NCBI GenBank assembly: GCA_024275415.1
Contig: JAJRZD010000043.1
Span: 1 to 32,000 of the forward strand
Length of the DNA stretch: 32,000 bases
From: an archaeon
GTDB taxonomy: Archaea > Asgardarchaeota > Thorarchaeia > Thorarchaeales > Thorarchaeaceae
Reading direction: 5' to 3'
Shown: piece after piece, positions 442-15,119 of the stretch
Numbering within the stretch: position 1 is the first letter of the stretch
How the letters are laid out: the number at the start of each line of letters is the position of its first letter
The notes under the pieces: model-generated
Told to the model about the DNA's origin: nothing
Database searches by the model: none
Seen by the model: the letters and a program-made list of their open reading frames with translations, nothing else
Program-made: the position numbers and the translations under genes

Positions 442-637
442 TTTAGAAAGAAGGGGTTGCCAACAGCTGCGAGAAATCTGGATCTATCGTGGTAGGTGGC
501 TATATACAACCGGACAGTACTAAGGCATAAGGTCGAATGACACGCGATGCTGACCACACAGAGTCGTTCCCAGTGCCGTTTTCTGGGAGGACAAGACTCT
601 GGTGTCCAGACTTGTCCAGATTAGAATGAACGGTCTT
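442..637 (+). ncRNA. Candidate structured ncRNA element, copy 1 (family unknown); span includes the putative promoter
   Basis: Homologous to 14897-15098. Stems: GACAC 539-543/GTGTC 602-606, CAGAGTC 559-565/GACTCTG 595-601, CCCAG 569-573/CTGGG 583-587, GGACAAG 589-595/CTTGTCC 611-617. Loop GCCGTT 575-580 is complementary to tail AACGGT 629-634. Confidence 0.55.
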
Positions 638-697
638 GCTGCAACCAATTCGTATTTCATCAGGAGAAATCCGCACCTGATCGTCAATGATTTCCAC

Positions 698-1177
698 TTA
701 GCAAGCATCACAAGGGGGGAACATCTCTAGGACAAGTTGAATAGCGGTCGCAACATAATCAAGACAGACCTTTTCAAATAATCCCTCATCGTTCGCTTTC
801 TTAAGATTCTCGGGATTGCTGATATCAAGCCCTAGAAGGTCTTTGCATTGCAAGGAACCGTGTTTCTCTTTGAAAAGCCTGATGAACTCGTGTACGTACT
901 CGTATGACTTTCTTTGATGCTCCTTGTGATCCTTGTATGTCTGTTCCAATAGTAGACCTATCGCTATCACTGCCCCGTTGACTGCTCCGCACACCTCACC
1001 GCATAGACCTAGCCCACCGCCAAAGCCAGCAGCAATGCGGGTTATGGAGGGAATCTTTAGGTCACGGGCTTCAAGTGTCGATTTCAGTACTGCTTGAGCG
1101 CAGTTATACCCATCAATGAAGAGTTTCTTTGCCTTCTTTATAGCGTCTTCGTGGAGCATCATCATTCCTTCCATCAC
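698..1177 (-). CDS. C_GCAxxG_C_C family putative redox-active protein
   Basis: Motifs YNCAQAVL, GFGGG, CGEVCGAVNG and LQCKDLLG, plus a later conserved Cys; extra C-terminal CDAC. Confidence 0.9.
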   Translation of the reverse strand: MMEGMMMLHEDAIKKAKKLFIDGYNCAQAVLKSTLEARDLKIPSITRIAAGFGGGLGLCGEVCGAVNGAVIAIGLLLEQTYKDHKEHQRKSYEYVHEFIRLFKEKHGSLQCKDLLGLDISNPENLKKANDEGLFEKVCLDYVATAIQLVLEMFPPCDAC

Positions 1178-1524
1178 ATTGGCTTTGCTGTCAAGTGTCT
1201 AGACGAAAGTAGAACTTGAGCTTTTCGTATTGTATTTCTTATACGTATTCGGGCTATTCTCACTTACATAATCTAAATTAAAATCGTAATTGGGGTGGCA
1301 CTTTAAAGAGTAATTTAGGTCCGGCATGAGTCTTGGATCTGGTCAGTTCATCTCAGTGGGACTTTGGAATTGCTGCCATTGGCTTAAGAGGAATCCCTTT
1401 GTTCTAGACGTAGGATCACTGACCTATTAGTTAGTGGATTTCCTTATGACGCACACTAATTTCAAAGAGTGATACTTTAATAGGAGTTAAGTTATTTAGA
1501 ATGTCAGGTTTAATAAAATTCTAA

Positions 1525-2034
1525 ATGGACGTTGGAACCATGGAACGCCTTCTGCTTGTTGATATGGATAAATGCACAGGCTGCAAGCAATGCTCCCTTG
1601 CATGTTCTTTGATTAAAGAGGATTTGTTCGACCCACATAGGGGGCGGATTAAGATCCTCAAGAGAGAAGACATCGCTCTCGGCATTCAGTTGCTCTGTGA
1701 ACAATGTGATGCTCATCCTTGTATTGATGCATGCCCTGACAACGCCCTTTCGAGAAATGATGATACTGGGATAATCACTGTGAATATTGATACATGTAGC
1801 AGCTGTGATTCATGTGTCAAGGCGTGTCCCTATCACGGAATCAGGTTGCATCCCGAAACCGGGAAGCCACTGATATGTGACCTATGTGGTGGTGACCCCT
1901 ATTGTGTCCAACACTGTGTTCCAGGCGCATTGTGTTGGATTGATGCGACAGATGATTTGATGAAGCAGAAGAAAAAGCTGCGTTCTGCACGAATGGCTAA
2001 ATACCGAGACCTGAAGAAGGAGGCGGCAAAATAG
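1525..2034 (+). CDS. 4Fe-4S dicluster (four-cluster, DmsB/HybA-like) electron-transfer subunit of the AOR (start may be ATG 1540)
   Basis: CTGCKQCSLAC, CEQCDAHPCIDACP, CSSCDSCVKACP, CDLCGGDPYCVQHC; stop codon abuts the AOR ATG at 2035. Confidence 0.92.
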   Translation: MDVGTMERLLLVDMDKCTGCKQCSLACSLIKEDLFDPHRGRIKILKREDIALGIQLLCEQCDAHPCIDACPDNALSRNDDTGIITVNIDTCSSCDSCVKACPYHGIRLHPETGKPLICDLCGGDPYCVQHCVPGALCWIDATDDLMKQKKKLRSARMAKYRDLKKEAAK

Positions 2035-3957
2035 ATGTACGGGCATCAAGGACAGATTCTACATGTGGATCTCAAAACAGGAAAGATTTGGACAGAGAAC
2101 TTACCTGAAGAGTGGAGGCAAATCTATGTAGGCTCCAGGGGGATAAATGCCAAACTTCTCTGGGACTACTGCAAGGATCCAGAGATAACGTGGGATGATC
2201 CACGAAATGTGATAATCTATGGCCCCGGGGCATTGACAGGGACTACCGCCCCAGCATCAGGTAGGACCTCGGTGACAACGGTGGGTTGCACAACTGGGAT
2301 GTACTTGAAGAGCAATACGGGCGGGCATTGGGGTGCTGAACTGAAATTTGCTGGGTATGACCATCTCGTTGTACATGAAATCGCAGACAGCCCATCATAC
2401 ATCCATATCGAGAACGACCATGTTGAGATAAAAGATGCCAGCGGTCTCTGGGGCAAGGACATCATCGAAACTGACACTCTATTGAAGAAGTGGCACGGTG
2501 AGGACTCAAGAGGTCTCTACATCGGGCCTGCTGGTGAACGACTTGTTCGGGCGGCGTCCATTCAGTGTTCATTGTATCATGCAGCCGGTCGAGGTGGCGG
2601 GGCCGCTGTCATGGGCAAGAAGAATCTGAAAGCGATTTCCGTAAGGGGAACGCAGCCAATCAAAATCAAGGATCCGAAGAAGTTTGCAGAAGTTGCGAAG
2701 GAAATGCGAGAATTGTTAAGGGCGGACAGTGGAGCACAGTCACTTCACGAGTTCGGCACATCAGGCTCGATAGCTGGTGTGAACGAGCTACACGCATTTC
2801 CTGGTAGAAACTGGCAAACTGGATATACGCCGAATGTCCATCCCATAACGGGCCAAGCATTGAATGAGAAAGGCTATCTCAAGCGACGCGTGGCGTGTTT
2901 TGGCTGTACAATTGGATGTCACAGATATTCTGTCATCGACGAAGGTCCGAACGCCGGCATTGCCAGCGGAGGCCCTGAATACGAAACCTTTGGTGCACTG
3001 GGTAACGGACCAGGTATCATTGATACCGAAGGTGTCCTACTATTGAATGAACTCTGCAACCGGATTGGACTGGACACTATCTCAGCTGGCACAATTGTCC
3101 AGTGGGCGATTGAAAGCTACGAAAGGGGTGTCCTTACAAAGGAGGATACCGATGGTCTCGAACTCGGATGGGGCAAATTAGAGGAAACAATCAAAGCAGT
3201 AGAAAAGATGGCCTTGCGAGATGGGAAACTCGGAGAGCTCCTAGGGGACGGGCTCAAGATTGCCACGAAAAAGGTTGGGAAAGACTCATACAAATGGGCT
3301 ATCATGAATGCCAAGGGTCTTGAACAGTCCAATGTGGAAACCCGCTCGGCAAAGGCATATGCATTAGCTTTCGCAGTCAACCCCAGAGGGAACGACCACC
3401 TGATGACAGAAACCTTTGCAGAGTTCGGAGCCAGTCCTGAAGCAGTCGAACTCATAGAGAAGCTTACTGGTGATAAGAAATGGGCTTCGCCTCATTTCAC
3501 TGAATATCGTGCAGAGATCGTCCGGTGGCACGAGGATTGCTATGAGATCACAGAAGCATTGGGATTCTGTGTCTTCACATCGACCGCGGCATATGGTGTG
3601 AACCCCGACAATATGGCAAGATTATACTCCGCAGCAACAGGCCTAAAAATGTCAGAGGAAGAACTTATGCTCTCCGGCAGGCGGGTTGTGACCCTTGAGA
3701 AAGCATTCAATGTCACTCGTGGGGCGACCAGAGAGCACGATAACCTGCCTTGGCGGTTGATGCATGAAGGGGCTGCTTCTGGACCATTAAAAGGAGAGAT
3801 GAACTCTCCGGAGGAACTCAAAGAGATGCTCGACAAATACTATACCCTTCACGAATGGGACTTGAAGACCAGCTGGCCATTAAAGGCGACCTATGAGAAA
3901 CTTGGTCTGAAGGAAGTCGCAGATTATCTTGCCAATCTTGGCAAGCTCCCTCAGTAA
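2035..3957 (+). CDS. aor: Tungsten-dependent aldehyde:ferredoxin oxidoreductase (AFOR/WOR family)
   Basis: 640 aa; SNTGG, GPAGE, GRGGGAAVMGKKNLKA, CFGCTIGC (Fe-S ligands), GPEYET, GLDTISAG, C-terminal YY..HEWD. Confidence 0.93.
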   Translation: MYGHQGQILHVDLKTGKIWTENLPEEWRQIYVGSRGINAKLLWDYCKDPEITWDDPRNVIIYGPGALTGTTAPASGRTSVTTVGCTTGMYLKSNTGGHWGAELKFAGYDHLVVHEIADSPSYIHIENDHVEIKDASGLWGKDIIETDTLLKKWHGEDSRGLYIGPAGERLVRAASIQCSLYHAAGRGGGAAVMGKKNLKAISVRGTQPIKIKDPKKFAEVAKEMRELLRADSGAQSLHEFGTSGSIAGVNELHAFPGRNWQTGYTPNVHPITGQALNEKGYLKRRVACFGCTIGCHRYSVIDEGPNAGIASGGPEYETFGALGNGPGIIDTEGVLLLNELCNRIGLDTISAGTIVQWAIESYERGVLTKEDTDGLELGWGKLEETIKAVEKMALRDGKLGELLGDGLKIATKKVGKDSYKWAIMNAKGLEQSNVETRSAKAYALAFAVNPRGNDHLMTETFAEFGASPEAVELIEKLTGDKKWASPHFTEYRAEIVRWHEDCYEITEALGFCVFTSTAAYGVNPDNMARLYSAATGLKMSEEELMLSGRRVVTLEKAFNVTRGATREHDNLPWRLMHEGAASGPLKGEMNSPEELKEMLDKYYTLHEWDLKTSWPLKATYEKLGLKEVADYLANLGKLPQ

Positions 3958-4005
3958 AGGGGGAGCCCAATAATCTCCAGTGTTTCAAAACAAGGATGTG
4001 TATTC

Positions 4006-5019
4006 ATGCAAGGCTACAAGGAATTCGGAGTCGCGATGACAGGGGTCTTTCCTGTCAAGGATGCAATCGAACTGGCAATGTCCGCGGAGAAACTGGGCTT
4101 CGGATCTGTCTGGTTCGCTGAGGACTACTTCTTCAGGGGCGGAATCCCCTATATGGCCGCTGGTGCAATGGCCACTGAGAAGATACGGATCGGACTAGGA
4201 GTCGTAAACCCGTACTCTCGACATCCTGCCCTCATCGCAATGGAGTTCGCCACTCTTGATGAGCTCTCCAACAAAAGAACCGTGTTCGGACTTGGTTCGG
4301 GCGTGCCGTATTGGATGTCACAAATGGGTTACAGCGTAAAGAAACCTCTTTCCAGAACTCGTTCCTGCGTTGAACTGGTACGAAAGATCATGTCTGGCGA
4401 GCTAATCAATCACAAAGATGCGTTCTTTGAAGCAAAGGATGTCCAGCTCATTTTCGAACCAGTCCGGAAAAACCCCCCGATCTATCTGGCATTTGAGGGG
4501 AAGATGGGACTCTCGCTTGCTGGAGAAATCGCTGACGGGGTCATACTGTCTATCTTCAACACAGCAAGCTATGTGAAGTTCGCGTGGGCACGAATAAGGG
4601 AAGGTGCAAAAAAGGTAGGTAGAAAACTGGACGAGTACGAGATGGTGTCGTATTTGCCGATGGTAATTGATTACGATTTGGACAAAGCTATAACCATCGC
4701 CCGAGAATTCATGAAGCTCTATTTGCCTCACTCTCAACCAGGTGGGCCCCTAATGGAGCACGCAGGGATATCGAAAGAAACCACGATAGCATTCAAAGAG
4801 GCTGAAAGTGCAGGAGAAGACATCGCTTCGCTGATCACAGATGAAATGGTGCTTACCCTTGGAGTCGTTGGCGATTCGGAGTCCTGCCTGAATCAAATTC
4901 AAGAGATTGTGGATGCTGGAGCCAATACACCCGTCCTGTTCCCTGTTCCAGGAACTCAAGTCATACCCACGGTGGAAACCATAGCAAAAGATATCATTCC
5001 GCATATGAATCCTAGTTGA
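4006..5019 (+). CDS. LLM-class (luciferase-like/Mer-like) flavin- or F420-dependent oxidoreductase
   Basis: GFGSVWFAEDY, IGLGVVNPYSRHP, LDELSNKR..FGLGSG, PPIYLA, GEIADGVIL. Confidence 0.88.
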   Translation: MQGYKEFGVAMTGVFPVKDAIELAMSAEKLGFGSVWFAEDYFFRGGIPYMAAGAMATEKIRIGLGVVNPYSRHPALIAMEFATLDELSNKRTVFGLGSGVPYWMSQMGYSVKKPLSRTRSCVELVRKIMSGELINHKDAFFEAKDVQLIFEPVRKNPPIYLAFEGKMGLSLAGEIADGVILSIFNTASYVKFAWARIREGAKKVGRKLDEYEMVSYLPMVIDYDLDKAITIAREFMKLYLPHSQPGGPLMEHAGISKETTIAFKEAESAGEDIASLITDEMVLTLGVVGDSESCLNQIQEIVDAGANTPVLFPVPGTQVIPTVETIAKDIIPHMNPS

Positions 5020-5034
5020 AAGGAGAATGTTCTG

Positions 5035-6246
5035 TTGGATGAGGAGTGTATACCTGAAAAGGAGCGCCAACGTGCTAGACTGGTCGGGTACGTTCTTACA
5101 ATCCTTGCCACATTCTCATTAGGTGTAACTGAGATATTCGCTCCATGGTATGCAGGAAAGCTAGGAGCTTCTGATTTTGAGATTGGATTGGCGATGGGTT
5201 CATTTGGAATCGTGTATATGTTCTCGCCAATACTAGGAGGTCGGATTTCCGATAGGATTGGGAGAAAGAAATCGCTCCTTGTTGCTACTGCTTCATACCT
5301 CAGCATCATCGTCCTCTACCCGCAACCGTTCATCATCCCGCTTCATATCATTCTTATCCGGTCCTTGGAAGGACTGTTTTTTGGACTCTTCTACCCAACC
5401 GTGGAGGCTTTGATTGCTGAGTTGTGTCCGGAGTCCCAAGGGGCAGTGCTGGGGAACTTCTCTGTTTCGTGGAGCCTAGGTATGACGATGAGCCCGGGTG
5501 CTATCGCATTCATGGTGCTTATGGTCGGTAACGTTTCAATCATCTATGTGGTGATGGCTGTAGAACTGGTTGCACTAGGAATGATAGCCGGATTTGTAGG
5601 TCAATACTCAACAGTCCAAGGCCACCAAATGGCTATGAATGAGCTGATTGAGCGCTATCCCACAGACAACCCGATCAAACCAGTCAGAGAGGGCGTGCAT
5701 ACTAGTGCAAGGTTTGTAGCCTCGTATGTTTCAATCGCATTGTTTGGATTCACTTCCACAACACTCCTTGCATTCTTTACCACGTATATAGAAACGATGA
5801 CGCCATATGGCCCAGAGGTATTCGGTTCGTTGCTAATGGTCTGGAATGTCACGAGAACCATTGCTTTCTTCGTTTCCAGCAGACTATCTCACCAAGGGAT
5901 GGGCCGACTAATGATTGTTGGAAGCTTTCTTGTGACTTTGGGGATGCTGACCATATTCATCACGATTGATATTATCATGCTGACTACTGCGATGGTACTA
6001 ACTGGATTTGGAGTAGGTTTTGCATATCTCGGAGCTTTGTATTCGGTCATATCTGCGACAGATAATGAGAAGGGACGATACGCCGGATTCATAGAGAGCC
6101 TTGCTGGAGTCGGTTTCTTCGTTGGACCTATCGCAGCAGGTTATGCTGCAGGTTTCTTTGCAACAGGGCCCTACATCCTGACGACTGTCTATGCCCTCAT
6201 ATCATTCGTGTTGGTACTGCTCCTTCTCAGAAAGGACGAAGAGTGA
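5035..6246 (+). CDS. MFS transporter (TTG start)
   Basis: About 12 hydrophobic segments; MFS motif A GRISDRIGRK; AGGAGA upstream. Confidence 0.9.
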   Translation: MDEECIPEKERQRARLVGYVLTILATFSLGVTEIFAPWYAGKLGASDFEIGLAMGSFGIVYMFSPILGGRISDRIGRKKSLLVATASYLSIIVLYPQPFIIPLHIILIRSLEGLFFGLFYPTVEALIAELCPESQGAVLGNFSVSWSLGMTMSPGAIAFMVLMVGNVSIIYVVMAVELVALGMIAGFVGQYSTVQGHQMAMNELIERYPTDNPIKPVREGVHTSARFVASYVSIALFGFTSTTLLAFFTTYIETMTPYGPEVFGSLLMVWNVTRTIAFFVSSRLSHQGMGRLMIVGSFLVTLGMLTIFITIDIIMLTTAMVLTGFGVGFAYLGALYSVISATDNEKGRYAGFIESLAGVGFFVGPIAAGYAAGFFATGPYILTTVYALISFVLVLLLLRKDEE

Positions 6247-6254
6247 GTATAGTC

Positions 6255-7028
6255 CTACTCTCGTAGCACCTCATCGAATCGACCACTAAGACTGGGTATC
6301 TCTGTGACGGATTTTCGAGGTGGCGTAGGATATGCGATCTTGCTGTGTGTCAGTCCAGTTTCAATCAGGGTCACTGCTGTCCATATACCTACCACATATG
6401 GATCCAAGATGGGTACTTTATACCTCATAGAGACCTCTGAAAGATTGAGATGATGTGAAAGTCCCGTGCAACCCAGAATGACAACATCCGCTCCATCGTC
6501 CTTGATTGCACGTTCTACTAGTGAAGAGAATTGCTCTTGGACAGCCGCAGGGTTACGCTCAATCTCTAAAACAGGTACGTCAAGAAATCGTACACTTGCA
6601 CAAAAGGAATCCAGCCCTTCTCTACGCACACCTTCGTGCATACATCTCACAAGCGATTGTCCTTGCACAGTGATTATGCTAAACCGGGTTCCTAATGTTA
6701 ATGCGAGATGCAAAGACGCTTGTCTGATTCCAATAACTGGTATGGACGTTATCTCTCGGGCAGCAGAGAGGACTGGATCACACGCACAATCAATGACAAT
6801 AGCATCTACTTCTCTTTCATCTGCGTGAACTATCTGTTCTAAGATGAATGGCGCATTGTATGCTTCGTCAGCATGAGACTCCACACTATGAGTACCGAAT
6901 CTAGCGAACATATTGAGGATCTCGTATCCAGAAGGGGTATGTTTCTTTACGAATTTAGTTTTTGCTGGATCCGTCAGCCAGTCTTTTCCGGTAACCCCAA
7001 TAAGTGCTATTTTTCTCATTTTCTGCAC
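6255..7028 (-). CDS. Asp/Glu/hydantoin racemase family protein (hydantoin/allantoin racemase-like; start may be ATG 7019)
   Basis: Two catalytic Cys motifs IDCACDP and ILGCTG; PILDP near the C-terminus. Confidence 0.88.
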   Translation of the reverse strand: MQKMRKIALIGVTGKDWLTDPAKTKFVKKHTPSGYEILNMFARFGTHSVESHADEAYNAPFILEQIVHADEREVDAIVIDCACDPVLSAAREITSIPVIGIRQASLHLALTLGTRFSIITVQGQSLVRCMHEGVRREGLDSFCASVRFLDVPVLEIERNPAAVQEQFSSLVERAIKDDGADVVILGCTGLSHHLNLSEVSMRYKVPILDPYVVGIWTAVTLIETGLTHSKIAYPTPPRKSVTEIPSLSGRFDEVLRE

Positions 7029-7048
7029 CAGAAAAGTTTTGATTCTAC

Positions 7049-8167
7049 CTAGTGCAGGTTCCCAATAATCTCTTCCATTGGCTTGTACTCGATCTCTGGG
7101 TGTCCATAACGTTCGGGGGAAAATGCTTTGCGACCAATATTGGTACTTCCGGCATATCTGAGTCGTTCATGAGCCTCAATAGCGGTGATGGTCACTGGGA
7201 CACCTTTCTTCAAGTCTGCACTCATTATTCCATGGCCGGTTTGTGGGTCGTGCAAGCAGATGAGGTCTGGAAATATGACAACAGGCTTCTCATCACAGCG
7301 GAGCATCATATACTCGTTCTTGACTGTGATTTCGAGCTTTCCATCGACTTCATCTGAATCAATAGTGACTGATACATGCCAGTGCCCAGCTCTATCTTCG
7401 CCATGTACATTCTCGACCACGCCAGATGCGAGATACTTGCCATCCATGATATCAAGGAATGCATCGATTGGATTATTGCCAGCTGCATTGGCATCTCGAA
7501 TTGCCCTACCAATCTCTATCGATTTTGATATGCTATGAGGAATCACAGATTTCTTCAGCTGTGCTCCAGTCTGGAAATAATGATTGTTTGCACCTGCACC
7601 CCCATCATTGACAACAGTGAACCTGCCAATCTCATCAGCCAGTGCAGGAGAAGTTGTTTTTTCTACTATGATTACACTGCCATTCTTGGTAACGACAGGC
7701 ATCGGGCACAAAGGTATATCGAATCCAATGAATGAAACCATTTGCGTTTCGGGTGCTGAACGACCAAGCCCATCACCATCCACAGTTGTGATACCTGCAC
7801 GTGCAGCAAGGGACAGCATGACTGTTGTATTCGTACCACCTAGCTCGAAGGGAACTAGATGATCTACTTTCTTACCAGCAACCTTCTCAGAAATCTGCAT
7901 GGCTTCAAACAGCTCGTATCGACTCTCCCACGCATTGAGCATGTCACCAATTGATGTGAACGCCTTGACAGAGCCCATGTAGCCGCCACATACAATGAAC
8001 GCGTCATCGTCAACCTCATCCGGGGGGATTATCTCGTAGACCCTTCCGCGTTCGTAGTCCCAATCGACCATTGGCTTTCCGAAACCTACAGGATCGCCTC
8101 CGCCGCCTGTTCCGAGGATGCCGACTCCGGTGAGCATGTCATATGCATTCTCTTTGGTCAGTTTCAT
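7049..8167 (-). CDS. DUF917 family protein, paralog 1
   Basis: GILGTGGGGDP, ELGGTN, DGDGLGRSAPE, VKNEY, IFPDLI. Confidence 0.88.
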   Translation of the reverse strand: MKLTKENAYDMLTGVGILGTGGGGDPVGFGKPMVDWDYERGRVYEIIPPDEVDDDAFIVCGGYMGSVKAFTSIGDMLNAWESRYELFEAMQISEKVAGKKVDHLVPFELGGTNTTVMLSLAARAGITTVDGDGLGRSAPETQMVSFIGFDIPLCPMPVVTKNGSVIIVEKTTSPALADEIGRFTVVNDGGAGANNHYFQTGAQLKKSVIPHSISKSIEIGRAIRDANAAGNNPIDAFLDIMDGKYLASGVVENVHGEDRAGHWHVSVTIDSDEVDGKLEITVKNEYMMLRCDEKPVVIFPDLICLHDPQTGHGIMSADLKKGVPVTITAIEAHERLRYAGSTNIGRKAFSPERYGHPEIEYKPMEEIIGNLH

Positions 8168-8180
8168 TCGGAACTACTCC

Positions 8181-8981
8181 CTATTCCGCTTTGCGTTTTC
8201 CATCCATAGACTGTACTATTTTGTACCATCTCTTCTTCGTCCCAATCTTAGCTCTGGAATTCCAGCTCCGTGTCTTGGGAGCCTCTTCTATCATCCTATG
8301 CAGCTTGTTGGCACGTTCGATGACAAGATCCTTCTGTTCTTGGGTCAATTGTTCAATGGTTGGGACGAAATTGACAAGTTTCTTGATGTTCTCAGTGACA
8401 GTGTAATAGAAGCCCCAATCATCGCTGAGGATGCTCGTTATGTATGCACCATTCACCATCGAGTCGTCATCATCTTCGGATACATCATAAGTGAGAAACG
8501 TAATGACAAGATCGTAAAGATCCTTAGCATTTATCTCAACAATCTGTGTTTTCTCTAAAAAGAGGTCAGCCAAGGAGATGGTGTATTTGTCGATTTCGAG
8601 TCGCTGGGGTTTCTTGAAGTCAATCAGATGACAGAAATCAAGATGGTCATAGAAGACATCAATCTTCCAACCAGTGTGAGGATTCATGAATAGGTCTCTT
8701 AGAGTGGATGCTCGCGCGAACCCAGGTGGTATCCACTTGTATCCAAGGTCATCGCGAAACAGGTTGATTATGTTCTTTTGATTCTTATAATATCCAACAA
8801 AGTCGATATCCGTTGGAACGCGTCCCATGCTCTCGTGAAGTTCGACGAGATCAGGGCATTTGATTCTGAAGGCCAAACATCCGATTACACGCAGAGGCCA
8901 GCCGTTCTCTGCAGCTGCATTCACAATTCTGATTGCCTCTTGCTGGTGGTCTTCAAGGATTTCACCATATTTCCCTGACAC
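8181..8981 (-). CDS. Uncharacterized nucleotidyltransferase-fold protein
   Basis: N-terminal LRVIGCLAF...PTDIDFV and a third acidic strand KIDVF match the pol-beta NTase hG..DhD...D pattern; helical C-terminus. Confidence 0.6.
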   Translation of the reverse strand: MSGKYGEILEDHQQEAIRIVNAAAENGWPLRVIGCLAFRIKCPDLVELHESMGRVPTDIDFVGYYKNQKNIINLFRDDLGYKWIPPGFARASTLRDLFMNPHTGWKIDVFYDHLDFCHLIDFKKPQRLEIDKYTISLADLFLEKTQIVEINAKDLYDLVITFLTYDVSEDDDDSMVNGAYITSILSDDWGFYYTVTENIKKLVNFVPTIEQLTQEQKDLVIERANKLHRMIEEAPKTRSWNSRAKIGTKKRWYKIVQSMDGKRKAE

Positions 8982-9130
8982 TTTTTACATCTCCAAGTCC
9001 AATGTCACAGAGTGAAAGTATAATATCACTTTAATATCTATCGAATTCGAATCTGATTTCTTAAAGGCTAGACCACTAAACTATTAATGTAGGTTAGAGA
9101 ATATTATGCTTAATCGGAGGAAAAAAACCG

Positions 9131-10081
9131 ATGAGTCTAAGGATATTTCAGGCATGTGACCCCCATGGCAGCATGAAAACATGGCACCAGATGTGCCGAG
9201 CACCAAAAGTGTTCAAAGTGGATGTTGCCATGATGTGTGGCGACCTGACAGGAAAAGCGATAATGCCGATAATAAAAGAAAAGGAAAACAGATGGTTTGC
9301 TCAACCTTTTGGTCGCAAGAAAGTATTCAAGAAACAGAAGGATCTTGACAAATTCATCGAGTTCACCTCCACAGAGGGATATTATCCTATCGTTCTCGAC
9401 CCTGACGAGTTGGCAGAACTCAAGGAGGACAGTGGAAAGGTGAAATCTCTCTTTGATAGGCTTATGACAGAGCGAATGAAACAATGGCTTGACCAAGCGA
9501 CAGAGATGATTCCTGAACATGTGGTACTTGTGGTCAACCCCGGGAATGATGATCCGTGGGTGATCGATGATATCATAAAGGAACACGAACGCACAATATA
9601 CCCATTGAAACAAGTCGTTGAGATTTCTGATAAACACAAACTAATCTCGTTAGAATACGTGAACTCGACACCTTGGGACACGCATCGCGAATGCGACGAA
9701 GAAGAGTTGATGGAACGGCTTGAAGCCGAGTTCGCAAGAGTGACTGAATCTGATTACGAGAACCTCCTTTGTAACTTTCACGCTCCTCCGCATGGTTCCG
9801 GTCTTGATACTGCTCCCAAGCTTACTGAAGATCATCGAATCACCTATTCAGGAGGCTTTGCCCTTACCGAAGCTGTAGGAAGTACAGCTGTCAGAGAGGT
9901 CATCGAGAAGTATCAGCCACTTGTTGCTATGCACGGGCATATTCACGAATCAGTTGGATTCACAAGTATTGGACGGACACTTTGTGTTAACCCTGGATCC
10001 GAATACCGTGAGGGAATCCTGAAAGGGATGCTAATCACAATTGATGACCGAAAAGCCACAGCAGGCAGAGTTGAACTCTAA
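9131..10081 (+). CDS. Calcineurin-like metallophosphoesterase (Icc-related)
   Basis: All five motifs present: DPH, CGD, PGNDD, FHAPP, HGHIHE. Confidence 0.9.
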   Translation: MSLRIFQACDPHGSMKTWHQMCRAPKVFKVDVAMMCGDLTGKAIMPIIKEKENRWFAQPFGRKKVFKKQKDLDKFIEFTSTEGYYPIVLDPDELAELKEDSGKVKSLFDRLMTERMKQWLDQATEMIPEHVVLVVNPGNDDPWVIDDIIKEHERTIYPLKQVVEISDKHKLISLEYVNSTPWDTHRECDEEELMERLEAEFARVTESDYENLLCNFHAPPHGSGLDTAPKLTEDHRITYSGGFALTEAVGSTAVREVIEKYQPLVAMHGHIHESVGFTSIGRTLCVNPGSEYREGILKGMLITIDDRKATAGRVEL

Positions 10082-10096
10082 CATTTTTGGGAAGTC

Positions 10097-10114
10097 GGGA
10101 CCTGAAAAGGTCCC
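10097..10114 (+). terminator. Perfect 7-bp hairpin with GAAA tetraloop after the phosphoesterase gene (terminator or RNA-stability element)
   Basis: GGGACCT-GAAA-AGGTCCC, 16 nt after the stop codon. Confidence 0.4.
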
Positions 10115-10201
10115 ATCTAATTTCTTAAACCCATTAGATTTAAAGTGCCGTATGGATGACATTTTCTTATAGATTGATTAAATACGAATTGGTGTTCATC
10201 G

Positions 10202-11320
10202 ATGAGATTTGATTTAAGGGACAGGACAGATGTCGAAGATCTGACAACCGGTTGTACATTCTTTGGAACTGGTGGTGGTGGTGATAAAAAAGTTGGTCTG
10301 GATATGCTCTATCCTCATGTAGATACAGGAAAGACAATCAAAATAATAGATGTCGCAGATGTGAATGATAATGATTGGGTGGCATGCCCATACTACTCTG
10401 GAACGATTGCACCCCCGACCGCCGAAGTAGAGGCATCAAGAACAAGATTTCCCTGGGATTCCTATGAACAAGAACTTGATATCGGACTCTCTATCATCGA
10501 AGACTATCTTGATATCAAGTTCCAATCTGTCGCTCCATTTGAGCTGGGGGGTGTCAATACTCCCGCGCCCATAGACGCAGCGACCAAACATGGGATTCAA
10601 TGTGTGGATGGCGATTATGCTGGACGCGCAGTGCCTGAGATATGTCAGAATACAGTCTGCATTGAAAAATTCCCTATGGCGCCCCTTGCACTGGTCGATT
10701 GGTATGGGAACAGGACACTTGTTCAGGATATAGTGAATTACGAGATGGGCGAACGCATCTCTAAAGCATTAAGCGAGTCTGCATGGGGCCGAGTTGGCAA
10801 TGTGGGGTTTCCATTGCAAGGGGCGGAATTCAAGAAAGTAATCATCCCAGGTACGTTATCGACAAGTTACAATATTGGGCGCTTGATACGCAAAAGCAGA
10901 GAAGATGGAGATGATCCAGCAGAAAGAATTGTTGAAAATCACGGTGGTTGGGTTATGTTCAAGGGGGAAGTAGTGGAGAAGAAATGGGAGAATAAAGCAG
11001 GATATATGTGGGGTGAAACGCTTGTCAAGGGCATAGGAGACGTACAAGGTAGGAAACTGAGAATCTGGTTCAAAAATGAGAATCATATCACATGGTTAGA
11101 TGACTCTCCTTGGGTCACAAGTCCTGACCTTATCATCGTGATTGAACAACATACTGGCGAGCCACTAACAAACACCGACATCAACCCTGGTGACAATGTG
11201 AGTGTGATTGGTATGAAAGCAGCGCACCCGATGTTCCGTACGGCTGGAGGGCTTGCAGTTCTCGGGCCAAAACACTTCGGTTTTGATATGACATATAGGC
11301 CAATCGAAGACCTAGTGTGA
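10202..11320 (+). CDS. DUF917 family protein, paralog 2
   Basis: TFFGTGGGGD, ELGGVN, DGDYAGRAVPE, FKNEN, TSPDLI. Confidence 0.88.
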   Translation: MRFDLRDRTDVEDLTTGCTFFGTGGGGDKKVGLDMLYPHVDTGKTIKIIDVADVNDNDWVACPYYSGTIAPPTAEVEASRTRFPWDSYEQELDIGLSIIEDYLDIKFQSVAPFELGGVNTPAPIDAATKHGIQCVDGDYAGRAVPEICQNTVCIEKFPMAPLALVDWYGNRTLVQDIVNYEMGERISKALSESAWGRVGNVGFPLQGAEFKKVIIPGTLSTSYNIGRLIRKSREDGDDPAERIVENHGGWVMFKGEVVEKKWENKAGYMWGETLVKGIGDVQGRKLRIWFKNENHITWLDDSPWVTSPDLIIVIEQHTGEPLTNTDINPGDNVSVIGMKAAHPMFRTAGGLAVLGPKHFGFDMTYRPIEDLV

Positions 11321-11327
11321 TGAATCA

Positions 11328-12029
11328 CTACAACACTATGTAGCCTGTATAGTGTTTCCTATACCAATTTGGCTCATTAGCGAAACGAACCGACTCATAG
11401 TCATTGTTGTAGAATTTGATAGGGTTCTTATCGGGATCCTCATCGGTCTTCTTCATGAGTCGTCGTGTATGGTGAATTGTTGTCTGAGCCCATCGCTTTA
11501 ATGCTAGCTTTTCTCTCCGCAACAAGGAGGGGTTATCCTCCCAGTACTTGTCAATGGCGCGGGCGATTTGTAGGTTGTAGTAGTGTCCGGCAGTCCACGC
11601 CACGACCATAACGAACCCCGCAAACACAGCAAACCCGATGGCATAGGGGATGTAATCAGTGAGCGCAAAGAAAAATGTGAGTACTGTTGCAGGAACAGCA
11701 AACGTGATCAGGATAAGAGATAGAAACCGGAGCGCCTGTCGCCGCGAATACATTTTTTTCACATCGGGAACCTGCGGAGATATCGCCGCAAATCGATGCA
11801 GAACCGTCCTCACAATCTTCCATTGTTTGACGAATGACCTGCCAATCCTGCCTTCTCCGACAGCATTCTCGATGAATGTCAGGTCAAATGCCCGATGTAT
11901 CCTGTAGCCATCGAATACAGTTATTATGTCCTTGCTCCATTTCAGATCAAGTCCTGATGGATCAAACTCGTATGTGTCCAAGTTAATCTTCGTGGGAGGT
12001 TTTTTCGAACCCGGTTTACCTTTACTCAA
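11328..12029 (-). CDS. Hypothetical membrane protein (2 TM helices)
   Basis: 233-aa ORF with a central hydrophobic hairpin; family not recognised. Confidence 0.7.
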   Translation of the reverse strand: MSKGKPGSKKPPTKINLDTYEFDPSGLDLKWSKDIITVFDGYRIHRAFDLTFIENAVGEGRIGRSFVKQWKIVRTVLHRFAAISPQVPDVKKMYSRRQALRFLSLILITFAVPATVLTFFFALTDYIPYAIGFAVFAGFVMVVAWTAGHYYNLQIARAIDKYWEDNPSLLRREKLALKRWAQTTIHHTRRLMKKTDEDPDKNPIKFYNNDYESVRFANEPNWYRKHYTGYIVL

Positions 12030-12169
12030 TCCTATCGCCTCGGGAAGATATCATCATGCTATTTAATCGCCCAACATAAGGATTCCCTTTGTCTTCATCG
12101 AGTGTTTAAGTATTAGAAACAAAACATCAATAAGACGTTTAACTTCATCAGTGGGTTAATCCGGATAAG

Positions 12170-13093
12170 GTGAGTCCCATGAACAACTTGGATATCTATG
12201 AACATATCAGCAAGGATCCATATAATGAGCAGGGAGGCGAACTACGATTCAGTTCATCAGGGATGGAATTCATCCTTCCCCGCAAGAAAAGAGGACGAAA
12301 ATACAAAATTCTATTCGAGGTCTTGTGGGATGAAGTTCTTGCCTATGATTGTAGTGAGATTCAATTCTGCAAGGATGAAAAGACATGGCCTTTGAATGAG
12401 CAATTGCCAGATGATTATTCTCCAGTTGGCACAGCAGGGATGTTTTTCGTTTTTATGCGAGCTAAGGGTGAGGCGTATTTTCAAATTTGGGCAATTATTC
12501 CCCAAGAAGATATCCAAGTTGTATCTGAGATTGCCTCAAAATACGTTGGTCGTGACAAGCTGTCCGGACTAGCACATCATGGCACAACAGCGGCAGTAAG
12601 GCTAGTTCTAAACAACTGTAATGTCATCGAACGCTTGCGGCTCAAATGGCACGACTGGGTTAGGAGAGGACCTTCTATCAGGCCAAGAGCTAAATTCAAG
12701 GAACTGGATCCTGAACTCGTCTTTTGCAAGGAAGGAATGGCTATTGACTTCTTTGGAGCTAGTCCTAAATTAGAGCAGATGTCCACGTTCTGGCCATGGC
12801 GAGTTATCCGGTCTATCAATATCCTTGATAGCGAGGTGCCTGAGATTGCCTTCATATGGCATGAGGACAGCTACACCTTCCGTTTGCAAGTATGGGATGA
12901 TGAAGACCGAAAAGCCATCCTTGATGCGGCAAGGAATGCATTAGAAACGTACAGGTCAAGTGATGACGTATCCGAGATGAAATTAATCCGTCCTTGGTCA
13001 TTCCCTTCAACATTCTATGAAACATGGGATGATTTGAAACCAAATGCCTGCAAGGCCAGTAGGGAAGGTTTCCCACCAATCTTTGAGGAATGA
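12170..13093 (+). CDS. Hypothetical protein, possibly two tandem PH-like domains
   Basis: 307-aa ORF; internal repeat ELRFSSSGMEF...LWDEV vs ELVFCKEGMAI...PWRVI. Confidence 0.65.
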   Translation: MSPMNNLDIYEHISKDPYNEQGGELRFSSSGMEFILPRKKRGRKYKILFEVLWDEVLAYDCSEIQFCKDEKTWPLNEQLPDDYSPVGTAGMFFVFMRAKGEAYFQIWAIIPQEDIQVVSEIASKYVGRDKLSGLAHHGTTAAVRLVLNNCNVIERLRLKWHDWVRRGPSIRPRAKFKELDPELVFCKEGMAIDFFGASPKLEQMSTFWPWRVIRSINILDSEVPEIAFIWHEDSYTFRLQVWDDEDRKAILDAARNALETYRSSDDVSEMKLIRPWSFPSTFYETWDDLKPNACKASREGFPPIFEE

Positions 13094-13158
13094 TATCGAA
13101 AAAAGAAGAGGAGGAAGCCTGGAAAATTCCAGGTTCCTTTCTTTCACTGAATTATTGA

Positions 13159-14730
13159 TCACTCGGGCGGTAGCTGTCCAAACACCGCAGCCATATCTAC
13201 ACCCTTCGCCTTGTTCTTGGCACCGTAGTACATGTACATCAACTGACCGAACAGATAGATGAACACAGTGAACAGCGTTTCAAACGGTAACCCTGATGGA
13301 ACAAAGCTGATGAGAGCGTAGAAGAACACCGCTCCGCTCACAATTCCTGCCAGCGACACTAACGGGAATCCAAGTATGGTCCATGCACCAGATCGTTCCC
13401 ACAAGGTCGGACGGTAGTACGGTAATGCCACCTCAACCAGTGAGAACTGCCATCGAATGAAGGTGTATGTGAACAGGACGCCGATGGCTATTGATACATC
13501 ATACCATATTGCCATTACAATTATGACTACTTGGACAATAAGCCAGTAGTACAGAGAATTGTGGGGCACATGATACTTGGGATGGATGTCTGCCATCATC
13601 TCTGGACACATCCGATCCATTGCCATTGCATGGAACGGTCGCGTCACCCATAGTGCATTCGAAGGTCCATCCAATGTGCTCGCATACAACGGACCAAGGA
13701 TTATGAACACAGCAAGACCAGGGTTGTCAGCAAGAGCCACGGCTGCAAAATTCCCAAAGCCTGGAAAGATGTCTGCTGTGGAGGCTGGATTCCAAGAGGC
13801 AATGTTGTTCCAGTATAGCACATCACCCATGCTTGTTTCAAGTGCATATGCAGAGAGCATGAAGAGTGCGCCGATTCCAACAACACCACCCATGCAGCTC
13901 AAGGGGATGTTCCTACTTGGCTGTGAAACTTCTCCTGCAACTGGCATGATGAGGTATGGCCACATGATACCTACCGCAGTAGTAAGAGCACCGGCTACTG
14001 CACCTAGATTCAGCGTCTGCCAAGCTGAGATATCTGTTATCCCAATACCCGCTGCTGCTGCTTGAAGGTCAGCGATCTCATGACCGGTTCCTGCGAATAC
14101 AGTGTCCCATATCCCGGAAATATTGGTCGTGAGTAGCACGATATCAGCCAATACGACAGCAGCGATATTGATTATTCCCAGGATTATCACAAACCAGCCC
14201 AGTGTGCGTACGCTCAGATAGCTGAAGATGAATCCTATGGCGGTCAGTATCAACGCGAGAATTACAACAGGCACATAATCTGTGTAGCTCCCGAGTGCTG
14301 TCCCTAGGTCGATGAATGTCTGGTTGTTTGTTATTGTGCCAAGCACAAGAAAACCACCCGCTGATACTCTAGCTGCAAAGAAGCTAGCGGATCCCCGGAA
14401 TACTGGATTGGTAATGACTGAACGCCAACCTTCCATTACACCGAAAAGCGGATGGAGACCTCGACCGACAAAGTGGTACGAAGCACCGGACCGTGGCATC
14501 GCAAGCATCAGACACATTGTACCTAAACCTTCGAAAAGTATGGCAAATGTACCTACTGCGAAGGTGGGCACAAGATGCGCGCCCGCAACCCATGTTGATA
14601 CCTGTGGAGCCACGAAATGGAAGTACGGTCCAACAGTCAACGCAATTGGAAGAATCAACGCGAACCACGGACCTACTTCTTTCACGAGTCCGGAGCTTTC
14701 CCTAACGAATAGCAATTGATCGTTGCTCAT
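13159..14730 (-). CDS. APC family amino acid/amine permease
   Basis: N-terminal FVRESSGLVKEVG typical of archaeal APC permeases; AGEV motif, RPFHAMAMDRMCP, about 12-13 TM; AAAGGAG upstream. Confidence 0.9.
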   Translation of the reverse strand: MSNDQLLFVRESSGLVKEVGPWFALILPIALTVGPYFHFVAPQVSTWVAGAHLVPTFAVGTFAILFEGLGTMCLMLAMPRSGASYHFVGRGLHPLFGVMEGWRSVITNPVFRGSASFFAARVSAGGFLVLGTITNNQTFIDLGTALGSYTDYVPVVILALILTAIGFIFSYLSVRTLGWFVIILGIINIAAVVLADIVLLTTNISGIWDTVFAGTGHEIADLQAAAAGIGITDISAWQTLNLGAVAGALTTAVGIMWPYLIMPVAGEVSQPSRNIPLSCMGGVVGIGALFMLSAYALETSMGDVLYWNNIASWNPASTADIFPGFGNFAAVALADNPGLAVFIILGPLYASTLDGPSNALWVTRPFHAMAMDRMCPEMMADIHPKYHVPHNSLYYWLIVQVVIIVMAIWYDVSIAIGVLFTYTFIRWQFSLVEVALPYYRPTLWERSGAWTILGFPLVSLAGIVSGAVFFYALISFVPSGLPFETLFTVFIYLFGQLMYMYYGAKNKAKGVDMAAVFGQLPPE

Positions 14731-14896
14731 TTTTCGGGGTTCTCCTTTGTTTTTTCTCTCTCACGGCGGATTTGATTCTCTCCGTGATAACATTCCTTAG
14801 AGGATTCCTGATATTTAACCCTTGTTAGATTAAGAAAAATTGTCGAATCTATCCATTGTTAAAGACTGTTAAAGTATGAACTGGTAAATCCCACAA

Positions 14897-15098
14897 CTTA
14901 AAGATAGGTTGACAACAGCTGTACAAGACCTAGACGATCATGGACATCTTGTTGTGGGTGCTTGGATAGTTTCGACGAAACATACTCGGTGAGGTCATCC
15001 ATGACATACGTAGGATCTCACGGAGTCCACCCAGTGCCGTTCTCTGGAAGTACAGCACTCTGGTGTCAAAGCTTGTATAACTTACAATAAACGGTCTA
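14897..15098 (+). ncRNA. Candidate structured ncRNA element, copy 2 (family unknown); span includes the putative promoter
   Basis: Stems: GACCT 14927-31/AGGTC 14992-96, TGACAT 15002-07/GTGTCA 15063-68, CGGAGT 15021-26/ACTCTG 15057-62, CCAG 15031-34/CTGG 15044-47, GTACAG 15050-55/TTGTAT 15073-78. Loop GCCGTT 15036-41 is complementary to AACGGT 15090-95. Confidence 0.55.
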
Positions 15099-15119
15099 AT
15101 ACATACCTGTAAACAAACC

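Follow-up and report, generated by a model that had tools for sequence, protein, structure and literature searches.

Two related elements, copies A and B, in the 32,000-nt stretch of archaeal DNA that we analysed (the window) very probably (probability about 0.85) derive from an IS607-family transposon as miniature, non-autonomous, MITE- or PATE-like elements that carry a TnpB-type omega-RNA scaffold. The structured RNA that a preliminary description saw in them is real, but it is of a known kind and not a new RNA class. Since the 3′ core of the elements lies over the stop codon of a nuclease gene in sister loci, comparison of sequences identifies that core as the predicted omega-RNA scaffold of a 713-aa TnpB/Cas12f-like nuclease, combined with the transposon right end.

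Two members of a mobile, multicopy family

The relationship between copies A and B (Table 1) is evident from their cores, 569-636 and 15030-15097, which blastn aligns without gaps at 79.4% identity over 68 nt, bearing out the 54/68 matches counted previously. Two further blocks singled out in the preliminary description, GGTTG(C/A)CAACAGCTG (455-469 and 14907-14921) and AGGTC..ATGACA, are likewise present in both. What had been taken for two copies is a multicopy family: homolog searches of the source genome returned 56 copies with blastn, 83 matches with nhmmer (53 of them near-full-length) and 63 matches with a covariance model. Identity among copies at distinct loci in the genome reaches at most ~94% (range 75-94%, median 82.5%), with copy B up to 93% identical to sister copies. 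When we sampled 36 genomes of this taxonomic family, 24 had the elements, which there span 13 genera at up to ~60 copies per genome; the 24 genomes sampled outside that taxonomic family had none. The Arf-like GTPase and Roadblock genes that lie nearby suggest that the host belongs to an Asgard lineage. A search of the whole window with the Rfam 15 covariance models gave no match at the gathering threshold, in agreement with the earlier failure to recognise a known family; the sole match below threshold was mir-9230 (E 6.3, 14 bits versus a threshold of 100).

Family members start with GG-GTTGCnAACAGCTG (GGGTTG) and stop at ...AAUGAACGG (AACGG(T)), between unrelated flanks. Copy A begins GG-GTTGCCAACAGCTG and ends GAATGAACGG, followed by T, and copy B begins (A)GG-TTGACAACAGCTG and ends CAATAAACGG, again followed by T. 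Conservation breaks off sharply after AACGG(T), downstream of which the sequence is fully variable in 57 copies. The true end is AACGG (633 in copy A, 15094 in copy B); the CT at 635-636 and 15096-15097, originally counted into the core, is coincidental flank.

We compared two paralogous pairs of occupied and empty sites (C37:2704-2893 versus C37:14905-15140, and C53:2208-2373 versus C39:5639-5781). In these, insertion occurred precisely at a GG dinucleotide without target duplication, and the T after AACGG and the sequence beyond it are target DNA. Junction logos likewise have a GG core at both junctions, and neither a terminal inverted repeat nor a target-site duplication was found at the copy boundaries. 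Insertion at GG without target duplication is the signature of an IS607 serine transposase. Only 5 of 54 copies have a C immediately before the left GG, but at the right end this position is a C (AACGG); by analogy with the logic described for an IS607 IStron (bioRxiv 10.1101/2023.11.20.567912), this base may tell self (the right end) from non-self (the TAM).

Among the family's insertion sites there is no conserved target, conserved neighbour or orientation rule, and no flanking protein is common to the copies that were compared. Insertion sites are not shared with congeners, and copy B is missing from the orthologous intergenic region of three of them. The elements are thus short (157-221 nt), free of ORFs, multicopy and polymorphic for presence or absence, and they retain both ends of the autonomous element, all of which are properties of MITE- and PATE-type elements.

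Table 1. Features of copies A and B and the evidence for each.
Feature	Position	Strand	Evidence
Copy A, whole miniature element, subfamily A (~180 nt)	454..634	+	nhmmer HMM positions 1-190, E 9.7e-46; CM R1 101.4 bits; sharp boundaries in alignment of 46-56 copies
Left GG crossover core, common to element and target; preceding base is the putative TAM position	454..455	+	GGG kept in 47-48/54 copies; empty paralogous sites have GG only
Copy A left end: GTTGCCAAC and CAGCTG palindromes, degenerate TGGAC(A) subterminal repeat (479-484)	456..500	+	Left end conserved across subfamilies
Internal TATA box (TATATACA), putative archaeal promoter ~22 nt upstream of scaffold start	501..508	+	TATA-like box at fixed distance in 56/74 copies
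Omega-RNA-like scaffold of copy A, ~105 nt	529..633	+	Pair counts (74 sequences); independent compensation among tnpB-linked copies; homology to tnpB 3′ end and right end
P1 helix, copy A	531-534 with 552-555	+	Pair counts
PKa helix, copy A	539-543 with 602-606	+	Pair counts
P3 helix, copy A	559-565 with 595-601	+	Pair counts
P4 helix, copy A	569-573 with 583-587	+	Pair counts
PKb helix, copy A	589-595 with 611-617	+	Pair counts
PKc helix, copy A	576-580 with 629-633	+	Pair counts
Putative guide of copy A, target-derived 3′ flank after right-end AACGG	634..653	+	Variable flank in 57 copies; empty sites
Copy B, whole miniature element, subfamily B (~189 nt)	14906..15095	+	nhmmer E 8.2e-53; CM 117.5 bits
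Copy B counterpart of the internal TATA box, mutated: TTGGATAG, against TTGTATAG in sister copies	14962..14969	+	Subfamily B alignment
Omega-RNA-like scaffold of copy B, GAGGTC to AACGG	14991..15094	+	CM R1 model positions 1-108; pair counts
Putative guide of copy B (3′ flank)	15095..15114	+	Variable flank; by analogy

Scaffold fold and putative internal promoter

Several measures indicate that the fold is conserved. Across 74 family members, 88.2% of the cells in six helices pair, compared with 36-45% when the partners are slid, and double-change cells number 130 versus 22-44; none of 500 shuffles reached any measure, although genomes of one taxonomic family are kin and these shuffle statistics therefore overstate the number of independent events. 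The stems proposed in the preliminary description, GACAC/GTGTC, CAGAGT/ACTCTG and GGACAAG/CTTGTCC, all hold, as do CCCAG/CTGGG and the CCGTT/AACGG part of the loop-tail pseudoknot; the last T of that pseudoknot as first drawn (GCCGTT/AACGGT) is target-derived, as the empty sites reveal. The one compensatory change reported between the two copies, G590:C616 to T15051:A15077, is real and marks the best co-varying pair of the family (UA 35, GC 23, CG 5). PKb occurs with UA, GC and CG, and P3 switches from CAGAGU:ACUCUG to AGGAGU:ACUCCU, and in short elements of different genera two of its pairs have 12 double changes each. Further compensation is seen in tnpB-linked copies (GGACA:TGTCC, GGGCA:TGCCC, GCACA:TGTGC and AGACA:TGTCT); a loop GUCGUU pairs with a tail AACGAC, and the loop-tail pairing is compensated in loci L089 and L086. 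In the tnpB-linked scaffolds we could not make out P1, P3 or PKa, which counts against our model, in which the nuclease would accept the scaffold of the short form.

Many copies in the genome carry unpaired cells in their stems. G-U cells exceed A-C cells only modestly (162 versus 121), so the pairing counts alone leave the strand unfixed. Moreover, a subterminal inverted repeat (TGGACA/TGTCCA) overlaps with the RNA, and the sequence may therefore be conserved in part for transposase binding at the DNA level; the palindromes and subterminal repeat of the left end are putative TnpA_S binding sites. Of the earlier suggestion of a ribozyme-like, guide-like or mobile RNA, the mobile, guide-type and structured parts stand, while nothing supports a ribozyme, nor the alternative, switch-like folds. 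The two variable internal segments that had been offered as guides are indels, one set in the left end and the other in the P1 loop, that differ between subfamilies. The scaffold, with its conserved secondary structure and guide-adjacent pseudoknot, is instead followed by variable flanking DNA, as in omega RNAs, and by analogy the 3′ flank of copy A would serve as its guide.

In the short elements the left end is joined to a ~105-nt scaffold, with a conserved TATA box ~22-25 nt ahead of the latter. A TATA-like box stands at this fixed distance in 56 of the 74 copies, which come from 13 genera, while the spacer sequence varies, and the genome encodes TBP. It therefore appears, from sequence, that each copy is transcribed from its own internal promoter. 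The TATA-like boxes previously proposed (442-449 and 14897-14904) fall outside the element, and other copies do not conserve them.

Nuclease and transposase genes of related elements

We fetched 20 sister-genome loci. In 19 of them the 3′ core (HMM positions 125-190) lies over the stop codon of the 713-aa TnpB/Cas12f-like gene, and the remaining one (L097) is cut by a contig end; in this genome the core coincides with the stop codon of a TnpB-like ORF of contig C120 (nhmmer E 2.9e-7). The overlap of the tnpB 3′ end with the right end that characterises omega RNAs is thus present in these loci; the window copies themselves have no gene. This homology, together with the IS607 ends and GG sites, overturns the earlier view of a candidate new class from which omega RNA was excluded. 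The nuclease retains the RuvC D/E/D residues and an intact zinc ribbon, and its AF2 model matches Cas12f, TnpB and Fanzor2 over 500-640 columns (E 5e-9).

One sister locus, L087, also has an IS607 tnpA upstream, whose 204-aa product scores 176 bits on the NF033518 IS607 transposase model (cutoff 110) and hits PF00239 at 3.5e-20. In addition, contig C57 of the present genome (G000:C57) holds an intact IS607 element with a 190-aa TnpA, a TnpB and the same termini (GGGTTAACAACAG...CAACGG-T). In both, TnpA is a serine recombinase with an N-terminal MerR-like HTH; the window copies lack tnpA, as expected of a non-autonomous element. The left end resembles those of these two tnpA-tnpB elements, of the C120 element, which keeps a tnpA HTH stub, and of L095 (nhmmer HMM 1-54). 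A PATE of the IS200/IS605 (Y1) type was rejected, as the Y1 transposase (PF01797) was not found in this genome (92.9% complete) and GG cores form the junctions.

This 92.9%-complete assembly contains no intact gene for the cognate 713-aa nuclease. Its remnants are a fragment of residues 401-713 on C120, without the WED and REC domains that hold RNA, and a 31-aa stub on C117. RNA-bearing genomes mostly have the nuclease gene too, and the TnpB-like protein had no match in any of the ten RNA-negative genomes also searched with it; promoter-equipped RNAs are far more numerous than nuclease genes. Because the cognate gene here is only truncated, the copies in this genome may now be idle, and their recent activity is doubtful in view of the missing nuclease, the divergence of the copies, the unpaired cells and the mutated TATA box of copy B.

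One of the closest parallels is the IStron of Clostridium botulinum, an IS607-family element with TnpB and omega RNA that has a strict GG core of TnpA_S, a TGGG TAM and a scaffold ending ...UCGG (bioRxiv 10.1101/2023.11.20.567912). As there, a serine-recombinase TnpA with a MerR-type HTH is encoded upstream of tnpB (L087 and G000:C57), insertion is scarless with GG at both junctions, the base before GG distinguishes TAM from right end, and the scaffold ends ...CGG immediately before a putative guide supplied by the 3′ flank. Unlike the IStron, the present family has no group I intron, its nuclease is 713 rather than ~400 aa, its host is an archaeon, and the majority of its copies are miniatures that lack genes but have a promoter of their own; its scaffold sequence has no Rfam match, including to RAGATH-18 and the IS605-orfB motifs. 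Gene-less PATEs, IS200/IS605 derivatives whose omega RNAs are used in trans, have been described in Geobacillus stearothermophilus (bioRxiv 10.1101/2023.03.14.532601). Our elements are likewise protein-free, multicopy combinations of left and right end, whose omega RNA would need a TnpB encoded elsewhere. PATEs, however, are moved as single-stranded DNA by a Y1 (HUH) TnpA and have subterminal hairpins and a 4-5-nt TAM, whereas here no Y1 transposase was found, both the ends and the GG core conform to the serine-recombinase type of IS607, and a TATA promoter is set directly before the scaffold. With the ISDra2 and ISFba1 TnpB omega/reRNAs and the Cas12f sgRNA the scaffold shares its origin from gene 3′ end plus right end, a guide-adjacent pseudoknot and a 3′ guide, and the predicted fold of the partner protein matches those TnpBs and Cas12f-type nucleases. 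It differs from those RNAs in having no detectable sequence or covariance-model similarity, in the additional helices P1, P3 and PKa of the short form, and in a far larger partner.

Proposed mechanism, alternatives and meaning

In the model that we favour, the autonomous form would comprise the left end, tnpA, the tnpB-like gene and a right end that overlaps the end of the latter gene and encodes the omega (guide) RNA scaffold; deletion of the genes would leave the short form, with its TATA box ~22-25 nt before a pseudoknotted scaffold ending ...AACGG. Serine TnpA acting in trans would move the element by GG-GG recombination, C57 being one intact IS607 element with the same termini. Each copy would produce, from its own promoter, a transcript of the scaffold and its 3′ flank, to be taken up in trans by the TnpB-like nuclease, which would then cut the emptied donor site (a non-C base and GG, then flank sequence), so that recombination restores the element. 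A role in such homing and retention has been shown for IS605 and IS607 TnpB. As a tentative extension, possible though doubtful, the promoter-equipped miniatures could be the main guide-RNA carriers for the large nuclease, dozens of single-guide genes serving one or a few effectors in trans, with P1, P3 and PKa having evolved after release from coding constraint. If so, one effector with many guide genes would be a step between omega RNA and CRISPR-like arrays, or else a nuclease hyperparasite.

We regard as unlikely an account in which the elements are IS607-derived MITEs, DNA-level parasites or relics moved by TnpA in trans, whose RNA fold is an inherited remnant, untranscribed or unused. 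The missing intact nuclease gene, the 75-94% identity with scattered stem mismatches, the mutated copy B TATA and the subterminal repeats overlapping the RNA region fit such an account, but short elements of different genera compensate in helices that tnpB-linked copies lack (P3 above all), the TATA-to-scaffold distance is held while the spacer drifts, and genomes with the RNA mostly have the nuclease gene; moreover, the genome is not fully assembled, and assembly often misses IS elements that occur in many copies. TnpB-derived RNA-guided regulators reportedly exist, and the excess of promoter-equipped RNAs over nuclease genes, along with a sole cognate ORF that is a truncated RuvC half, could point to domesticated RNAs that guide a TnpB relative, truncated or without nuclease activity, or some other protein in neighbour-gene regulation rather than transposon retention. 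We hold this to be highly improbable, as the guides are whatever flank lies at the landing site, with no rule of target, neighbour or orientation, congeners lack the same insertion sites, and the truncated ORF lacks the RNA-holding domains. We give almost no credence to a free-standing class, such as a switch or a self-cleaving ribozyme, with no relation to the guide RNAs of transposons: for all its compact, multiply pseudoknotted, co-varying fold and lack of an Rfam match, it was rejected on the homology of the core to tnpB-like 3′ ends, the transposon ends, the GG sites, and a left end common to tnpA/tnpB elements.

The reading as IS607 miniatures explains a conspicuous unannotated repeat as transposon guide-RNA cassettes. 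We infer transcription of the RNA and its use in trans by the nuclease because of sequence homology and the conserved promoter. The principle of gene-less omega-RNA elements is already known; the present family extends it from bacterial Y1-type IS605 to archaeal serine-recombinase IS607 elements. It also offers ~500 natural scaffold variants of one guide RNA with clear covariation, in effect a natural mutagenesis, and a candidate RNA-guided enzyme: a divergent TnpB-like nuclease of unusual size, for which the scaffold is defined and the TAM is likely of GG type.

A multicopy family with fixed ends

The two window copies, read in the preliminary description as a candidate new structured noncoding RNA, belong to a multicopy family of short, gene-less elements. 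Within the source assembly (3.5 Mb, 127 contigs, 92.9% complete), where the window corresponds to C21:1-32000, copy A as the query returned 44 matches, blastn with copies A and B found 56 loci, and searches with an nhmmer profile and a covariance model gave 83 hits (53 near full length) and 63 hits, respectively. Copy alignments distinguished three or more subfamilies, with lengths of about 180, 189 and 211 nt, whose members all start at (G)GGTTGCnAACAGCTG and stop at ...ACAAT(A/G)AACGG-T; outside these limits the flanks are unrelated. There were no terminal inverted repeats at the element tips and no target duplications at the ends. Clustering of flanking ORFs revealed no protein-coding gene common to the flanks, and a shared neighbour gene was rejected, as the clusters consisted of paralogous histidine kinases, membrane proteins and spurious frames across the repeat.

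Several observations made on the two window copies withstood closer analysis. The 54/68 identity reported for their gap-free cores was upheld by blastn, the shared block GGTTG(C/A)CAACAGCTG was confirmed in both, and the claimed stems were found when the two regions were aligned. The TATA boxes assigned to each copy turned out to be ordinary flank, lacking conservation among copies and lying outside the true limits of the elements (see table). Rfam at the gathering threshold gave no match in the whole window, Rfam E-value scans of copies A and B returned a single, meaningless sub-threshold miRNA match, and a tRNA/tmRNA search of the window found none. Copy A is neighboured by a 94-aa ORF without a family match and a gene for a C_GCAxxG_C_C redox protein.

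Of 36 genomes sampled from the same taxonomic family, 24 were matched by the covariance model (2-56 hits each), against none of 24 sampled from other families of the phylum. Many copies on many contigs of a sister-genus genome (G013) have identical covariance-model scores (97.4, 97.6 and 87.0 bits), which suggests a recent transposition burst there. Outside the window but on its contig, a tiny derivative that fuses the outermost 38 nt of the left end with the final 26 nt of the right end gives a hint of what mobility minimally requires.

Coordinates of the elements and associated features (C, contigs of the source genome; L, fetched loci)
Feature	Location	Strand
Copy A, true limits	window 454-634	
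Copy B, true limits	window 14906-15095	
Gap-free core, copies A and B	window 569-636; 15030-15097	
GGTTG(C/A) block, copies A and B	window 455-469; 14907-14921	
Supposed TATA boxes (ordinary flank)	window 442-449; 14897-14904	
Aldehyde:ferredoxin oxidoreductase and 4Fe-4S partner, beyond copy A	window 1525-3957	
Amino-acid permease gene, neighbour of copy B	window 13159-14730	-
Mrr-like restriction endonuclease-domain gene, neighbour of copy B	window 15120-16007	-
Tiny derivative	C21:95560-95625	
Hit at stop codon of truncated TnpB-like ORF	C120:7852-7791	
Arf/Ras-like small GTPase gene	L031:2536-3174	-
Roadblock/LC7 gene	L031:3286-3747	-
Intact IS607 element	C57:14319-16117 (L032:1820-3618)	-
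TnpB-like frame unrelated to the family	C82 near 6449-6592 (L033)	
Copy with rejoined-flank match	C122:64067-64254	
Rejoined-flank match	C2:~830-870	
TnpB/Cas12f-like nuclease gene, outside window	L085:1498-3639	-

The conserved RNA and a TnpB-like nuclease

A TnpB-like ORF on contig C120 of the source genome (PF07282, 5.9e-15) has a weaker nhmmer hit (E 2.9e-7) exactly at its stop codon, where the DNA reads ...TCCAGTGCCGTTGCTGGACGGACTGCCTGA-TGTCCAGGTTTGTCCAACTTTCAATCAACGG-T and has the same hairpin, GGAC/GTCC helix and AACGG tail as the short elements. This ORF is a truncated fusion that spans residues 401-713 alone of the full-length protein, with a tnpA helix-turn-helix stub upstream in a different frame. 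Its stretch THRDRLARF was considered as a recombinase remnant and rejected, because it aligns to full-length nuclease homologues (from query position 31-36 onward). The truncated element adjoins genes for an Arf/Ras-like small GTPase and a Roadblock/LC7 protein, typical eukaryote-signature genes that suggest an Asgard-type archaeon.

With the C120 protein as query, 25 of the 40 genomes searched in the same taxonomic family had homologues, mostly as open frames of 710-760 aa, and the 3' core of the element (HMM 125-190) lies at the 3' end of the nuclease gene in 19 of 20 fetched loci, the twentieth (L097) being cut by a contig end. All ten RNA-negative genomes that were also searched with the nuclease protein were without a nuclease match. 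No TnpB or TnpA was present within 1.5 kb of the best hits to the short elements in relatives.

The nucleases, recorded at L085 and 12 further loci (alignment A5), are far larger than ordinary TnpB. The half with RuvC and the zinc ribbon is intact in them. In a 713-aa representative (P0002), the RuvC Asp/Glu/Asp residues and the zinc ribbon are retained, and the match to the NCBIfam model 'RNA-guided endonuclease TnpB' covers residues 476-698 only. The N-terminal ~475 aa of the family matched no Pfam or NCBIfam model, and an ESM Atlas look-up with the N-terminal 470 aa produced nothing usable. An AlphaFold model of the representative (13 homologues in the alignment, pLDDT 71) matches Cas12f, Cas12k, Fanzor2 and TnpB structures over 500-640 columns (best E 5e-9), the matches to Cas12f, TnpB and Fanzor2 being full length. 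From the core homology at the 3' ends of the genes, the match at the C120 stop codon and the fold and residues of the nuclease, we infer that the conserved RNA is the omega-RNA scaffold and right end of this TnpB-like nuclease family. A third TnpB-like frame in the source genome, on C82 (563-aa open frame, PF07282 1.6e-11), is unrelated to the element family.

Pairing in the scaffold

A covariance model was built from 46 copies, and 74 copies from 13 genera were aligned to it; pairs were then counted for a structure of six helices, among them three pseudoknots missing from the model. Among the 74 copies, 88.2% of cells were paired, as against 36-45% with the partners slid, double changes occurred at 22 of 35 pairs and in 130 cells (22-44 when slid), and none of 500 shuffles reached any measure. 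These statistics overstate independence, given the kinship of genomes within one taxonomic family. The alignment is itself fitted to three of the six helices. The pair G590:C616 of copy A, described as compensated by U15051:A15077 in copy B, is UA in 35 copies, GC in 23 and CG in 5 of this alignment, and helix P3 varies from CAGAGU:ACUCUG to AGGAGU:ACUCCU.

Independent compensation is seen in the tnpB-linked scaffolds, with GGACA:TGTCC, GGGCA:TGCCC, GCACA:TGTGC and AGACA:TGTCT in one set and TCCAG:CTGGA, CCCAG:CTGGG and GCCAG:TTGGC in another, and a loop GUCGUU is matched by a tail AACGAC. Helices P1, P3 and PKa were not evident in these tnpB-linked copies. A TGGACA/TGTCCA subterminal repeat overlaps the RNA region. 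G-U cells (162) versus A-C cells (121) weakly favour the + strand; the strand, which such counts cannot settle, was assigned from gene and promoter orientation. Single-sequence MFE folding yielded z-scores of -2.0 and +0.6 for the + strand and of -1.1 and -1.8 for the - strand, values that are not decisive, as such folds ignore pseudoknots.

Whole-element RNAalifold was uninformative because subfamily indels were misaligned, and mutual information with APC was set aside because subfamily (phylogenetic) signal dominated. Changing the MAFFT gap penalties left GACAC of subfamily A out of register, so a hand shift was applied for our own counts; the tool-based pair count, with subfamily A misaligned in PKa, is conservative.

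IS607-type ends, insertion sites and promoter

Gene-less IS200/IS605 derivatives known as PATEs carry omega RNAs for use in trans (bioRxiv 10.1101/2023.03.14.532601). That reading was dropped for the present elements, as a search of the 92.9% complete genome for a Y1 transposase found none. The gene-bearing relatives point instead to IS607. At one sister-genome nuclease locus (L087), a gene upstream of that for the nuclease encodes a serine recombinase of 204 aa that has a MerR-type HTH and scores 176 bits (cutoff 110) as 'IS607 family transposase', and the left end resembles that of the short elements (GACAAACCTAGACAT); a tnpB-only element (L095) has a left end that matches HMM 1-54. The source genome itself holds an intact IS607 element on contig C57, encoding a 190-aa TnpA and a 409-aa TnpB, whose termini are as in the short elements (GGGTTAACAACAG...GGGCAACGG-T) and whose omega body is unrelated. 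This element may supply transposase in trans.

Insertion sites agree with an IS607 assignment. Junction logos showed GGG at the left end (47-48 of 54 copies) and, at the right end, AACGG-T. In two pairs of occupied and empty paralogues (C37; C53/C39), the insertion point is exactly a GG dinucleotide; nothing is duplicated, and the target supplies the base that follows the right GG. The base before GG is C at the right end, and C is depleted before the left GG (5 of 54 copies). In a published IS607 element the core is strictly GG, the TAM is TGGG, the scaffold ends in ...UCGG and the base before GG discriminates self from non-self (bioRxiv 10.1101/2023.11.20.567912), with which the GG core and C-before-GG asymmetry found here agree. 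Three congeners lack copy B in the orthologous intergenic DNA, whose divergence is too great for the junction to be located; the corresponding comparison for copy A found no congener with matches to both of its flanks. Guide-like matches to flanks elsewhere numbered three with at most one mismatch, about chance level. One, a 24-nt stretch on contig C2 that matches the two flanks of a copy on C122 when these are joined (ATTGGA + TTAAATGAATGxACATG), resembles a short TAM-plus-target site, and the other two look like chance.

IS607 TnpB homing has been described (bioRxiv 10.1101/2023.11.20.567912); in the literature searched, we did not find a description of an IS607-type miniature with its own promoter at high copy number in an archaeal family, combined with a 713-aa TnpB-like nuclease. 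In the source assembly the cognate nuclease gene was seen in truncated form only, and no two copies at distinct loci are more than ~94% alike, so the present activity of the short elements in this genome is uncertain.

A TATA-like box (TTTATATA, TTTAAATA or TGTATAG) occurs within the elements in all subfamilies and in 56 of 74 copies across genera. Its 3' end lies ~22-25 nt ahead of the conserved (G/A)AGGUC scaffold start, across a spacer whose sequence varies freely, and the organism encodes TBP. The same left-end TATA stands ahead of tnpA or tnpB in the gene-bearing elements; the deletion that formed the short elements would thus have brought this putative transposon promoter immediately upstream of the scaffold.
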